This document shows, piece by piece, positions 169 to 56,989 of a stretch of DNA of 64,000 bases. Below the pieces are notes generated by a model. That model searched no databases, was not told the DNA's origin, and worked only from the letters and a program-made list of their open reading frames with translations. The stretch comes from a virus, in the IMG/VR virus record IMGVR_UViG_3300044811_000050; one strand, 5' to 3'. The position numbers were made by a program, and so were the translations under genes. The first letter of the stretch is position 1. Every line of letters starts with the position of its first letter.

Positions 169-210
169 CTGACGAAAGAGCTTGGCGGTGTCAGCTTGTC
201 AGGGTAGGGT
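169..210 (+). promoter_or_regulatory. Repeat promoter/operator element upstream of DinG
   Basis: CTGAC-GAAAGAGCTTGGCGGT-GTCAG-N10-TAGGGT; matches the window-wide consensus. Confidence 0.75.
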
Positions 211-251
211 GAGACCTTGAAGCACCGACCCCGAACCTGAGGGAGCACCCC

Positions 252-2213
252 ATGACTTGGCTCGCCACGACCGACGCGCTGGCCCAGCACCTTCCCGGCT
301 ACGAGTCCCGCACGGAGCAGGACCGACTGGCCACCTCGATCGAGCACGCGCTGGCTGACCGGACCCACGTCCTGGCCCAGGCCGGCTGCGGCACCGGCAA
401 GTCCTTCGCCTACCTCTCGGCCGCCTACGACTTCGCGTTGGCCATGGGTGGCCCGGTCGGCGTGGCCACCGCCACCAAGGCGCTTCAGGACCAGCTCTCC
501 GACAAGGACCTGCCGTTCCTCGCGGAGATCTTCCCGGGTCTGCGCTACGCCGTGGTCAAGGGCCGGTCCAACTACGTCTGCCAGGCCAAGCTGAACGGCC
601 CCGAGGCCGAACAGGTCGCCAACGTCGCCGACGTCCGCCGCGAGCTGGACGAGACCCCTGAGCACTCCGGCGACCTGGACTCGCTGATCACCGAGATCCG
701 CCCGGCCGACCGCAGCAAGCTGGCCGTGGTGGCCGACGAGTGCCCCGGCAAGCGGGACTGCCCGTTCGGCGAGGTGTGCTTCGCCGAGGCGGCCAAGGCC
801 AGGGCCCAGGACGCCCACATCGTGGTGGCCAACCACGCCGTGCTGCTGCGCGACACCGAGATCAAGAACGCCAGCAACGGCAAGGCCGGGATGCTGCCGT
901 ACCTCAAGGCCGTGGTGGTCGATGAGGCGCACGAGCTGGAGGACTACGCCACCTCCGCGCTGGGCGTGGAGTTCACCCAGCGGTCTCTGGAGCGCTTCGG
1001 CGACGACGCGGCGGCGTTCCTGAAGGACCCGGTGGTGGCCGCCGAGCTGCGGAAAGTCACCCACGCGCTGTTCGTCAAGCTGGATGAGGTGATGGGCCGC
1101 CGCGAGTCCACCGTGCGACTGACCGACGAGCTGCTGTCCGAGCTGGGCGAGGAGCTGGTGGGCGTGTGGGAGGCCACCCAGGGGGTCCAGGACCTGATCA
1201 AGCGGGTGCGCCCGGAGGACGACACCCACGCGCTGAGCAAGAAGCGCTTCGAGCGCCGCGCCGCCGGTATGGTCACTCGGCTCGGTCGAGTGATTACCGC
1301 CGAGTCTGACGAGATCGTGCGCTGGGGCGAGCGCGAGGAGCGGGAGTTCCGGGGCCGCAAGGAGGTCACCGTCAAGCTGGCGTTCGCGCCGCTGCACGTC
1401 GGCGAGTACCTGGCCACCCACCTGTGGCAGTACCTGCCCGCCGTGCTGGTCTCGGCCACCCTGGCCACCGACGGCGATTTCTCCTACCTCGCCGGCCGGC
1501 TCGGCCTGGAGGACTACACCGGCTTCGACGCCGGCAGCCCGTTCGAGTTCGCCAAGCAGGCGCTGCTCTACACCCCGCTGTCGTCCCCCCGGGGCAACTT
1601 CCCGGAGCCGACCTACCAGACCCAGGACCGGTGGCAGGCCATGATGGCCGCCGAGTCCGGCGAGCTGATCCGGGCCGCCGGTGGCCGGACGCTGGCGCTG
1701 TTCACTAGCCGCCGCTCGATGAACGCCACCTATACGGCGCTTCAGCCCACCCTGCGGGCCATGGGGGTCACCGTGCTCAAGCAGGGCGACGCGCCCAACG
1801 TGCAGCTGGCCCAGCGGTTCAAGACCGACGAGACCTCGGTGCTGTTCGCGCTGAAGTCGTTCATGACCGGGGCCGACTTCCAGGGCGACTGCTGCCGCCT
1901 GGTGATCATCGACAAGCTGCCGTTCGCGGTGCCCTCCGACGTGGTCTTCCAGGCCCGCGCCGAGGCCATCGACGCGGTGAAGACCGGTTGGAATGACGGC
2001 TCGTTCATGAAGCTGTCGGTGCCGAGCATGACCCTGACCCTGCTTCAGGCATTCGGTCGAGCCATCCGGACCAAGACGGACAAGGCCGCCGTGGTTATCT
2101 TCGACCCCCGGCTGAACTCGAAGGGTTATGGGAAGGGGATCCTGCGCGCGTTGCCGGATGCCCGTCGGGTCAACGACCTGAACTCGGCCATCGCGTTCCT
2201 CCAGGCCATCTGA
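252..2213 (+). CDS. dinG: DinG/YoaA-family ATP-dependent helicase (Fe-S type)
   Basis: Q motif YESRTEQ, Walker A QAGCGTGKS, DEAH box, four Cys (NYVC..ECPGKRDCPFGEVC), SATL, QAFGRAIR. Confidence 0.92.
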   Translation: MTWLATTDALAQHLPGYESRTEQDRLATSIEHALADRTHVLAQAGCGTGKSFAYLSAAYDFALAMGGPVGVATATKALQDQLSDKDLPFLAEIFPGLRYAVVKGRSNYVCQAKLNGPEAEQVANVADVRRELDETPEHSGDLDSLITEIRPADRSKLAVVADECPGKRDCPFGEVCFAEAAKARAQDAHIVVANHAVLLRDTEIKNASNGKAGMLPYLKAVVVDEAHELEDYATSALGVEFTQRSLERFGDDAAAFLKDPVVAAELRKVTHALFVKLDEVMGRRESTVRLTDELLSELGEELVGVWEATQGVQDLIKRVRPEDDTHALSKKRFERRAAGMVTRLGRVITAESDEIVRWGEREEREFRGRKEVTVKLAFAPLHVGEYLATHLWQYLPAVLVSATLATDGDFSYLAGRLGLEDYTGFDAGSPFEFAKQALLYTPLSSPRGNFPEPTYQTQDRWQAMMAAESGELIRAAGGRTLALFTSRRSMNATYTALQPTLRAMGVTVLKQGDAPNVQLAQRFKTDETSVLFALKSFMTGADFQGDCCRLVIIDKLPFAVPSDVVFQARAEAIDAVKTGWNDGSFMKLSVPSMTLTLLQAFGRAIRTKTDKAAVVIFDPRLNSKGYGKGILRALPDARRVNDLNSAIAFLQAI

Positions 2214-2468
2214 AGCTAGGGTGTTGTTTGCCCTCCGGCAACGGAGGGTATTCAACAGCCATTCAGCCATGTCCAACGGTTCTCGACACCAATTGGACAA
2301 TCTGGCACTCTACGATCAGTTTCTTACTGGACCCGCCTGAGGGAACCATTTCAAATGATGGCGCTATTCGATGGGCTGGTTCGCTTTATGACCAGAGACA
2401 CCACGCCTCGATGGGCGCACCCGCTCATCGAGGCGGTCCGCCGTATCGAGAGAAAGGTCAACACGATC

Positions 2469-2837
2469 ATGGCACTCGACTTGGACGTCCTCCACCGGAT
2501 TCTGGTGGGGGCGCAGTTCCTCGCTGACCGGGAGAAGGCTAATCAGCAGAAGATCGCCGATCTGACCACGCAGCTCACCGCCGCTCAGGATCAGCTCGGC
2601 CAGGCGACGGCCGCCGAGGCGGCCGAGGACGAGGCGGAGCAGGCGGCCAACACGGCCGCGACCACCGTGGCCGACACGATCGACTCGCTGGTCAAGGGCC
2701 CGGACACTCCGACCGTGGAGCAGCCCGCCGACCCGGGCCAGGTGGCCGACGTGGTCACCGGCGACGCGCCAGTTGTCGTGACCGACCCGGGCCCGACCGC
2801 CGACACTCCGCCCGACGCCGCGCCTTCGGTGGAGTAA
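2469..2837 (+). CDS. Hypothetical acidic coiled-coil protein
   Basis: RBS-like GAAAGG before ATG 2469; GC3-rich codons; start could be 2355. Confidence 0.65.
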   Translation: MALDLDVLHRILVGAQFLADREKANQQKIADLTTQLTAAQDQLGQATAAEAAEDEAEQAANTAATTVADTIDSLVKGPDTPTVEQPADPGQVADVVTGDAPVVVTDPGPTADTPPDAAPSVE

Positions 2838-2915
2838 GTCTGATCTCTCCGCGTTACCTGACATCCCTGTGCTCGTTATGGAGCACAGGGATGTCGCGCG
2901 TTCGGAGGAGATGAG

Positions 2916-55797: not shown

Positions 55798-55923
55798 CGA
55801 CACCGTTGCGCCCCCGTCACACCTTGATCATGAACCCGGACAACAAACCCGTCACGCATACCTAGTTTTCTCGTTATCAGATGGTGAGTGATCACCTACC
55901 CCGACCGAATTGAGGCTCCCCAC

Positions 55924-56136
55924 ATGAGTGCTATCGACCTAGTCATAACCACCCGGCTCCCCGAGCTGCTGCAAGCCATGGTCAACGCCCTGCCCGAGGT
56001 GAGGTGCGAGGTGGTCCAGGGCAGCTTCGACGGCACCAAGTGCACGCTGCGGGTGCACACCAACACTCGCTTCGCGCACTACCGGATCGTTCAGCAGGGC
56101 TACGGGGACGTCCTGGAAGTGCGGCCGGCGGCATGA
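55924..56136 (+). CDS. Small hypothetical protein
   Basis: GAGG RBS. Confidence 0.55.
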   Translation: MSAIDLVITTRLPELLQAMVNALPEVRCEVVQGSFDGTKCTLRVHTNTRFAHYRIVQQGYGDVLEVRPAA

Positions 56137-56390
56137 GCCTCATCTACCGGGTCAGCCGCAAGGTCTCCCCCTGGATCTGGGTGCCCCTCGCCACGATCAC
56201 CATCGTGGTCAGCAGCTACGTGGGGGTCATGGCCACGCTGTACGTCACCGAGTCCCATGGCTGGTGGTGGCTCCCGCCCTGGATTTTCGGACTGGTGGGC
56301 GCGATCGTCGGCTACGCGGTGGCCGCGATCCTGATATTCGCTCCGCTGGGGATGTTGCGACGACGGAGGCAGGTCGATGAGCAGCGGTGA
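56133..56390 (+). CDS. 2-TM membrane protein
   Basis: ATGA overlap; two hydrophobic helices. Confidence 0.65.
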   Translation: MSLIYRVSRKVSPWIWVPLATITIVVSSYVGVMATLYVTESHGWWWLPPWIFGLVGAIVGYAVAAILIFAPLGMLRRRRQVDEQR

Positions 56391-56775
56391 CCAGGGCTGG
56401 GAGCAGCGCATGGCCGACCGGGCCAAGGAGCGCGAGCGGGTCCGCCGAGAGCGGGACCCCATCGAGCGCCGGGAGCGTTACGAGCGGCGCAACCCGGACC
56501 TGCTCTGGCTCAATGGCTATCCCCGGGACGACCTGCGGCATGCCTGGGTGGTCGGCACCCGCCGCTGCATCGGCTGCGGCTCCATCCAGGGCTGCGCGGC
56601 CTACGTGCTGGTGGAGGGTGCCGAGTATCCGCCGGAGCCCACCTGGCCGTTCACCCCGGATGCCTGCCCGGTGTGCCTGAGTTCGGAGCCCTGGACGATG
56701 CTCCAGGTCGACCTGGGCGAGCCCGGCTCGACCAGCTATCCCCGGACGGAGCTGCGGGAGCTGCGCGATGAGTAG
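56377..56775 (+). CDS. Hypothetical protein with CxxC pairs
   Basis: GGAGG RBS; CIGC, CPVC. Confidence 0.6.
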   Translation: MSSGDQGWEQRMADRAKERERVRRERDPIERRERYERRNPDLLWLNGYPRDDLRHAWVVGTRRCIGCGSIQGCAAYVLVEGAEYPPEPTWPFTPDACPVCLSSEPWTMLQVDLGEPGSTSYPRTELRELRDE

Positions 56776-56947
56776 TCGGTCAGGAGTGAAGCGCGCCGAC
56801 ACCCGGCCTGGCTACGCGTACTGGAAGGCCAAGCGGCCCGAGGAGTGTGTGGCGTGCCCGGACCCGATCGAGGTGGGCCAGGAGATCATGAAGGCCTATG
56901 CCGGCGGGTATGTGCACGTGATCTGTCCGCATTTGTCCCGCAGCTGA

Positions 56948-56989
56948 CTGACCGAAATGCTTCGTCCTGTCAGGGTGAGCTGCTACGGT
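56948..56989 (+). promoter_or_regulatory. Repeat promoter/operator element
   Basis: CTGAC-N16-GTCAG-N10-TACGGT, then CCGAACCGGAGG. Confidence 0.75.

Follow-up and report, generated by a model that had tools for sequence, protein, structure and literature searches.

A 42-bp repeat, CTGAC-N16-GTCAG-N10-TANNNT, is dispersed through a 64,000-nucleotide stretch of viral DNA from the IMG/VR record IMGVR_UViG_3300044811_000050 (hereafter the window), and is probably the transcription half of a composite expression cassette of ~100 bp, built around a host-sigma promoter and belonging with the ESAS+SAS motifs of mycobacteriophages and the PeSL elements of T4-like phages. The window derives from an uncultured phage with a genome of ~157 kb; a DinG search traces it to a 157,300-bp contig and places it in a large clade of ~150-kb uncultured phages, which share the module. 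The comparisons include (i) REL65, a 69-kb stretch of a 152-kb relative, pieced together from six overlapping loci; (ii) L026, a third phage with CTGAC-type cassettes (70% G+C, 20 kb sampled); (iii) G001, a distant relative (59% G+C) with a DnaE 54% identical to that of the window; and (iv) the relatives L009, L010, L011, and L025, with DinG proteins respectively 89%, 65%, 63%, and 49% identical to that of the window.

The exact string CTGAC-N16-GTCAG occurs seven times in the window and never on the minus strand, against 0.47 occurrences expected. A 42-nt weight matrix, trained on 10 copies and scanned over the window, returns 11 strong sites of 39-62 bits, starting at 169, 34523, 34969, 40319, 41151, 42373, 43797, 46334, 49485, 51392, and 56948, and the top score on the minus strand is 2.5 bits. 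Together with three weaker copies, these sites bear out the 14 intergenic + strand copies listed in an earlier note on this DNA, and the equal frequency on both strands or inside coding sequences that the note named as grounds for abandoning its proposal is not seen. The copy at 44181 is genuine, its 18-nt spacer resulting from a single base inserted in the -35 region; the copies at 26601 (14.6 bits) and 32902 (17.9 bits) are weak, with degenerate boxes, and retain the A-tract, a -35-like TGG, the -10 box, and a downstream ribosome-binding site. All 14 copies have the same base at G3, A4, C5, A8, A9, C13, T14, T21, T37, A38, and T42, with free variation at many intervening positions, and the strong copies (n = 11) share at most 4 of their 42 bases with any called gene. 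A general role of the left-box TGA as the upstream stop codon was rejected, since it is true for only two of the 14 copies and the half copy at 52017. A search of viral, metagenome, and genome contigs for the exact motif as a repeat was negative and gave only five single matches, probably chance occurrences.

The invariant T37, A38, and T42 correspond to T-12, A-11, and T-7 of a -10 box. The -35 TTG keeps its first T in all copies, its second T in 11 of 14, and its G in 13 of 14, the departures comprising TAG at 41151 and TGG at 26601 and 32902, and the spacer between TTG and TANNNT measures 17 nt in 13 of the 14 copies and 18 nt in the other, as the earlier note had described for the central TTG. 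In sigma-70-family recognition of the -10 element, A-11 and T-7 are the bases read by sigma. The invariant T-12, A-11, and T-7, together with TTG at 17 nt, thus support reading the copies as putative primary-sigma (SigA/HrdB-type, sigma-70 group 1) promoters, in agreement with the SigA-type signature that the note had recognized. The strongest support for a promoter function comes from the orthologous DinG promoters: L009, L010, L011, L025, and G001 all keep TTG, the 17-nt spacer, TAnnnT, and the ribosome-site box described below. ECF-type and N4-type promoters were ruled out because their spacings and dyad position do not fit. Standard sigma-70 and terminator scans of 32-52 kb gave nothing useful and no canonical terminators, and tRNAs were the only matches of an Rfam scan.

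The same core is also found without the flanking arms at 3720, 6460, and 26008, sites that are conserved in REL65. The absence of the repeat from the replication operon, as put forward in the earlier note, consequently holds for the boxed version only, the arm-less copy at 6460 having been omitted from its list. The features that it grouped as degenerate copies do exist, but they differ in kind and are not simply weak copies, comprising arm-less promoters, partial cassettes, and, near 32429, a different dyad accompanied by a ribosome-site box.

Several points weigh against the cassette as an exchangeable unit driven by plain host sigma. Beyond TTG, the -35 element matches TTGACA poorly; the last three -35 bases are uniform per phage (GYG in the window, CTA in G001), a hint of something beyond plain host-sigma recognition; copy 41151 reads TAG where the others have TTG; not every indel separating REL65 from the window is flanked by full cassettes on both sides, that near 46095 being an exception; and exchange at cassettes is deduced from gene order, and the start site, timing, and polymerase from sequence. 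The uniform -35 bases would suit a phage-specific, middle-type promoter, in which the block from the left box to CCTTG is read by a phage activator or sigma-like protein that redirects the host polymerase, as in T4 MotA-dependent promoters; the 16-nt block up to and including TTG is the best conserved, and the proteins encoded at 21586-22323 and 45536-46111 show weak similarity to sigma-70 region 4. We regard such a promoter as very unlikely, given that TTG, the 17-nt spacer, and a full TAnnnT are what a primary sigma needs, that both region-4 matches fall below the Pfam cut-offs, and that searches of PHROGs and of PDB sequences assigned neither a sigma nor an activator function to the candidates, the PDB searches with these two proteins being empty.

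The translation half of the cassette, overlooked in the earlier note, is a 12-nt box, CCGMACCGGAGG, that follows the promoter copies ~25-35 nt downstream and lies 5-9 nt before start codons. Boxes of this type number 16 on the + strand of the window against 2.9 expected. The box contains the Shine-Dalgarno sequence and folds as a 4-5-bp stem with an 8-nt loop presenting GGA; its flanking pairs covary, and among 45 copies from three phages 0 of 500 shuffles reach the observed pairing or covariation, a pattern that identifies the ribosome-site box as a predicted RNA hairpin. Promoter repeat, leader, and ribosome-site hairpin thus combine to make the repeat the first half of a module of ~100 bp.

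The proposed cassette would comprise, from 5' to 3', (i) the left box, which often adjoins or includes the upstream stop; (ii) an A-tract at about -43 to -39; (iii) the -35 element TTGnnn; (iv) the right box, CTG-N-CAG, at about -28 to -22; (v) the -10 element TAnnGT; (vi) a conserved yTGTCAG-like start region; (vii) a leader of 25-35 nt; and (viii) the 12-nt box folding the Shine-Dalgarno sequence into a small hairpin, followed by the start codon. Initiation, presumably early, would most likely be by the host RNA polymerase with its primary sigma about 7 nt past the -10 box, and each accessory block, the tRNA array, and DinG would thereby be supplied with a promoter of its own together with a standard start of translation. 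The cassettes could also supply ~100 bp of homology for the exchange of gene blocks, and the two boxes may constitute the binding site of a phage-specific factor.

The boxes differ between lineages. REL65 holds eight CTGAC-type cassettes in 69 kb and L026 eight in 20 kb, none of them on the minus strand, and in the window, REL65, and L026 the best conserved block spans the left box, the A-tract, and CCTTG. The right box, CTG-N-CAG, has T, C, G, or A at its center and is imperfect in roughly 40-60% of the copies of the three phages. At DinG, the promoter of REL65 keeps the left box and lacks the right one, and that of L025 has no dyad; in G001 a different dyad, GTAGCA/TGCTAC, occupies the same place, with the right arm being the -35 element itself. 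From these comparisons we conclude that the two boxes are a lineage-specific addition that would not be needed for promoter identity.

The dyad might instead act as RNA, forming in read-through transcripts the stem of a stem-loop, as in PeSL cassettes, that attenuates or terminates transcription from the upstream unit or shields its 3' end, its overlap with the next -35 element being incidental. The G001 dyad forms hairpins of 12-24 bp in 5 of 11 copies (z -4.9 to -11.9), which covary and tolerate G-U pairs (1/500 shuffles), and flanking pairs extend the dyad in window copy 42373 (9 pairs) and REL65 copy 52715 (8 pairs). Seven of the 14 window copies, moreover, start no more than 21 nt after the upstream stop codon, leaving no space for a separate terminator, canonical terminators were not found in the region scanned, and PeSL stem-loops terminate transcription experimentally (PMC2839356). 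For the CTGAC lineage this role is nevertheless unlikely. In 24 CTGAC-type copies the box helix is paired at 67.5% against 65.1% in shuffles (60/500), without covariation, and mismatches of A4 with C, G, or A are uncompensated; the predicted hairpins are weak (-4 to -11 kcal/mol), with stems of 5-7 bp around a loop of 14-16 nt and no U-tract after them; and a hairpin role alone would not hold the sequence of the boxes across copies and phages. We conclude that in this lineage the boxes are apparently constrained as DNA sequence and not as a covarying RNA helix, which favors a putative binding site for a phage-specific factor.

In the earlier note this factor was a single dimeric regulator, with the boxes as its half-sites, switching all promoters as an early host-takeover/anti-defence regulon. 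Such a protein is possible, though we consider it doubtful. Both boxes are conserved in the window and in the two other phages while neighboring spacer positions vary, and their centers are 21 bp apart, confirming the description of inverted arms two helical turns apart that straddle the -35 element. A third CTGTCAG is present at the predicted start region in some copies, all seven CTGTCAG of the window lie inside cassettes, as right box or in the predicted start region, and a similar start-region motif is retained in G001 and L026. The change of box type between lineages, with the core promoter kept, is what a phage-private reader would produce, and the same idea has been advanced for the ESAS repeats (PMC11373665). 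As originally formulated, with a single dimer, the proposal lacks clear support: the imperfect right box with its free center, set against the better kept left box, A-tract, and CCTTG, points to asymmetric recognition; the REL65 DinG promoter dispenses with the right box; the boxes never occur apart from the promoter, neither as stand-alone sites nor near a candidate regulator gene in a way suggesting autoregulation; and nothing points to the task of the regulon.

Stoperators, the repressor sites of Cluster A mycobacteriophages, were also considered and rejected, as the boxes are never separate from the cassette. Stoperators are short and asymmetric, and they occur in large numbers across transcribed regions at a distance from the promoters.

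The protein encoded at 45536-46111, with two helix-turn-helix motifs, is the lead candidate for a reader of the boxes on account of its distribution: each of the three sampled phages with CTGAC-type cassettes encodes it (orthologs in REL65 and L026), whereas G001, whose dyad differs, has none. It is a lead only, since the genomes are few and related, and the co-occurrence, three related phages against one, is confounded by kinship; a pattern search of IMG/VR and JGI contigs found no relatives of it. The protein encoded at 21586-22323 is conserved in all relatives. The Lsr2-like protein of 52096-52575, one of the regulators suggested in the earlier note, is a nucleoid-associated protein and thus an unlikely reader of the dyad, and Pfam and PHROGs provided no function for candidates 4578 and 48653 or for most cassette-headed genes. 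A more elaborate scheme, which we consider decidedly unlikely, is a two-layer private code in which a lineage-specific DNA-binding protein (45536-46111 being the lead) reads the boxes and an RNA-binding factor the GGA-loop hairpin, so that accessory genes and the tRNA array would be switched as one set by a code drifting between lineages.

The gene complement behind the cassettes changes fast. Cassettes head rapidly changing accessory genes, the tRNA array, and the DinG helicase, and besides the latter two, the first genes downstream include only two with a Pfam match above its curated cut-off, in both cases to a domain of unknown function. The window is collinear with REL65 from 0.2 to 34.4 kb (50-85% protein identity), and the relationship becomes patchy after the sortase gene. 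Directly after this gene a cassette is found in the window, REL65, and L026, with different genes behind it, and cassette-headed genes are mostly unique or at different map positions among the three phages. Cassette 43797 with its gene precedes the tRNA array of L026, whereas in the window and REL65 this unit follows the array, and gene 41772-42017 is relocated likewise. The unrelated genes 40402 and 49712 have identical first 13 nt (40402-40414 and 49712-49724) directly after their cassettes, which may be a trace of recombination reaching the first codons. A long structured insert in cassette 49485 folds as a hairpin closed by 16-bp terminal inverted repeats, and the orthologous cassette of L026 (14374) is uninterrupted, without the ~150-nt insert.

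These observations leave room for the view that the boxes have no regulatory role of their own and are kept by copy-and-paste spread or homogenization, the repeat being mainly a homology linker for block exchange. Cassette-plus-gene units at differing map positions in three phages, first codons shared by unrelated genes, and partial cassettes at 52017, 63718, and REL65 58564 agree with it, and PeSL recombination offers a precedent (PMC2839356). Conserved and variable positions are, however, interleaved at single-base resolution, which fits selection at each position and not conversion tracts, and the boxes persist between phages at only ~55-65% protein identity, so that homology without regulation is an improbable account of them. 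The favored reading remains that of a promoter-led cassette with boxes under sequence constraint, whose instances in the window are collected in the table.

Table. Cassettes, partial copies, and related sites in the window
Feature	Position	Strand	Remarks
Cassette before DinG (252-2213)	169..251	+	Boxes, -35, and -10 at 169-210; ribosome-site box variant 231-242; identical cassette L009:1559
Weak copy with degenerate boxes, before gene 26686-27180	26601..26685	+	14.6 bits; ribosome-site box 26667-26678
Weak copy, boxes ACGAC/CTCAG, -10 TAAGGT	32902..32975	+	17.9 bits; ordinary GGAGG site; before gene in frame 32946-33233
Cassette directly after sortase gene, before gene 34607-34948	34523..34606	+	Ribosome-site box 34588-34599; same place in REL65 (45353) and L026 (1811), other genes behind
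Promoter copy, boxes ATGAC/GGCAG	34969..35010	+	39.3 bits; 78 nt 5' of first tRNA of 23-tRNA array (35088-39790)
Cassette before DUF2786/DUF7168 gene 40402-41154	40319..40401	+	Ribosome-site box 40384-40395
Cassette before gene 41233-41625	41151..41232	+	Left-box TGA is the stop of 40402-41154; -35 reads TAG
Cassette before gene 42455-42874	42373..42454	+	Boxes and 9 flanking pairs form a predicted 17-bp hairpin, -33.3 kcal/mol, z -7.6
Cassette before gene 43878-44174	43797..43877	+	Cassette and gene at other map positions in REL65 (52715) and L026 (2434)
Cassette with one extra base, before gene 44267-44536	44181..44266	+	18-nt spacer; right box GCCAG
Cassette before DUF6927 gene 46414-46965	46334..46413	+	Gene 46095-46337 ends at the left-box TGA; REL65 (59383) has the orthologous cassette
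Cassette before gene 49712-50653	49485..49711	+	~150-nt structured insert 49533-49681 between -10 box and leader (z -4.0)
Cassette before gene 51475-52020	51392..51474	+	Strong weight-matrix site
Cassette before small gene 57047-57193	56948..57046	+	Strong weight-matrix site
Arm-less promoter with the same core, replication module	6460..6501	+	A-rich tract, CCTTG, 17 nt, TACGGT; orthologous sites L010:17493 and L011:16655
Arm-less promoter-like site before gene 26087-26620	26008..26049	+	Orthologous site REL65 38011
Promoter-like site (TTGGTG, 17 nt, TATCTT) before DUF7242 gene 3774-4508	3720..3761	+	Orthologous site REL65 14895
Ribosome-site box without CTGAC-type promoter	32496..32507, also 41644-41655, 42049-42060, 63761-63772	+	
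Half copy, left box and A-tract only	52017..52029	+	Gene 51475-52020 ends at its TGA
Left box and CTGGCAG box, then directly a ribosome-site box variant	63718..63772	+	Without -35/-10

The window, from a phage of a presumed high-GC actinobacterium, has 66.7% G+C, with almost all likely genes on the + strand, and encodes DinG, DnaB, a DnaE-type polymerase, the Lsr2-like protein, a cutinase-type (LysB-like) esterase, and 23 tRNAs. The cutinase-family gene (38778-39674) sits inside the tRNA region and suggests a host with a mycolic-acid envelope; LysB homologs are absent from the large contigs of the relatives. In REL65, a TROVE (Ro60-like) protein (L023:11617-13266) adjoins the tRNA array and a WhiB-family protein (L023:6509-6772) is encoded directly after the sortase cassette, both without a match in the window. 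Segments 40000-47000 and 8000-17000 gave no match in a nucleotide search of a phage collection, and a look-up of the DinG product by identity gave none either.

Three further observations concern the gene map. The 672-aa protein of 23852-25870 matches a PHROG of terminase large subunits, its neighbors being replication or early-type genes. The sole convincing minus-strand gene of the window, 48653-49399 (248 aa), had no match in Pfam or PHROGs; its REL65 homolog (47% identity) is on the + strand in the core region directly after DinG, so that the window copy seems to have been moved and turned around. A short island of very high A+T content lies a few hundred bases 5' of the DinG cassette in three relatives with ~67% G+C (L009:1370-1445, L010:9690-9800, L011:8990-9100), just to the left of where the window begins, and could serve as an origin or as some other site acting at the DNA level.

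What ESAS/SAS-type motifs do in actinophages has been a question since 2011, and the clade studied here offers a large natural series, dozens of metagenomic genomes of ~150 kb whose core promoter and ribosome-site hairpin appear constant as the dyad type changes, separating what promoter identity needs from a lineage-specific addition. In genomes where most genes are uncharacterized, the cassettes would mark the starts of transcription units, true start codons, and points of block exchange; if the two-layer code were true, transcription and translation of the accessory genes and the tRNA array could be switched as one set.

Among known systems, SAS boxes mark start codons in Cluster K mycobacteriophages, with ESAS motifs lying 5' of them (PMC3203893), and the ESAS of Adephagia is a 46-47-bp SigA-like promoter with a 15-bp inverted repeat, for which a regulator was proposed in 2024 and none identified (PMC11373665), so that the analogy with ESAS drawn in the earlier note is well founded. 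Cluster EF Microbacterium phages possess a comparable SAS/ESAS-like motif pair (PMC7302621). As in Adephagia and TM4, the window has an asymmetric box over the ribosome-binding site, 3-9 nt before the starts of a subset of non-structural genes and in one orientation, the 16 + strand copies at 5-9 nt falling within this range; a subset of the Cluster K boxes is preceded by a motif of ~46-50 bp with SigA-like -35/-10 elements (17-18-nt spacer) and an inverted repeat, a layout of promoter plus inverted repeat that the window follows with much shorter arms; and the repeat consensus varies between subclusters as the dyad of the window clade varies between lineages. The two systems differ in that (i) there is no sequence similarity, the Cluster K SAS reading GGGATAGGAGCCC; (ii) the ESAS repeats are imperfect and of 15-17 bp, whereas the arms in the window are 5-7 bp long, 21 bp apart, and straddle the -35 element; (iii) the ribosome-site box of the window was found to be a covarying hairpin; and (iv) unlike the Cluster K phages, the ~157-kb phage of the window belongs to an uncultured clade, with a DnaE that shares no more than ~30% identity with its counterpart in any phage in culture.

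The PeSL elements of T4-like phages resemble the cassette in their A/T-rich tract 5' of the -35 element, sigma-70-type promoter, Shine-Dalgarno sequence, and conservation over the ~100 bp between stop and start, as well as in a dyad, which in PeSL occupies various positions relative to -35 (PMC2839356; PMC4122927). They precede orphan genes in variable regions, and the gene blocks differ between relatives (PMC2839356; PMC4122927), an association recovered here in the patchy region, the relocated units, and the few Pfam families. PeSL stem-loops are stable and terminate transcription, whereas the window dyad is weak and without covariation, although two CTGAC-type copies have extended hairpins and G001 has strong covarying ones; PeSL mini-circles and promoter activity were shown experimentally, whereas the window cassettes are predicted from sequence; and the host phylum and sequence differ. 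In Cluster O mycobacteriophages (Corndog), a 17-bp palindromic repeat occurs tens of times per genome, mostly at gene boundaries (PMC4351075), and shares with the window the short inverted repeat, the actinophage background, and the location at gene boundaries; it is a stand-alone symmetric site with no fixed orientation that is not fused to predicted SigA promoters, whereas the boxes of the window are. The cassette of the window would fall into the same class as ESAS+SAS and PeSL; compared with ESAS, it has another sequence, shorter arms, and another phage group as its carrier.

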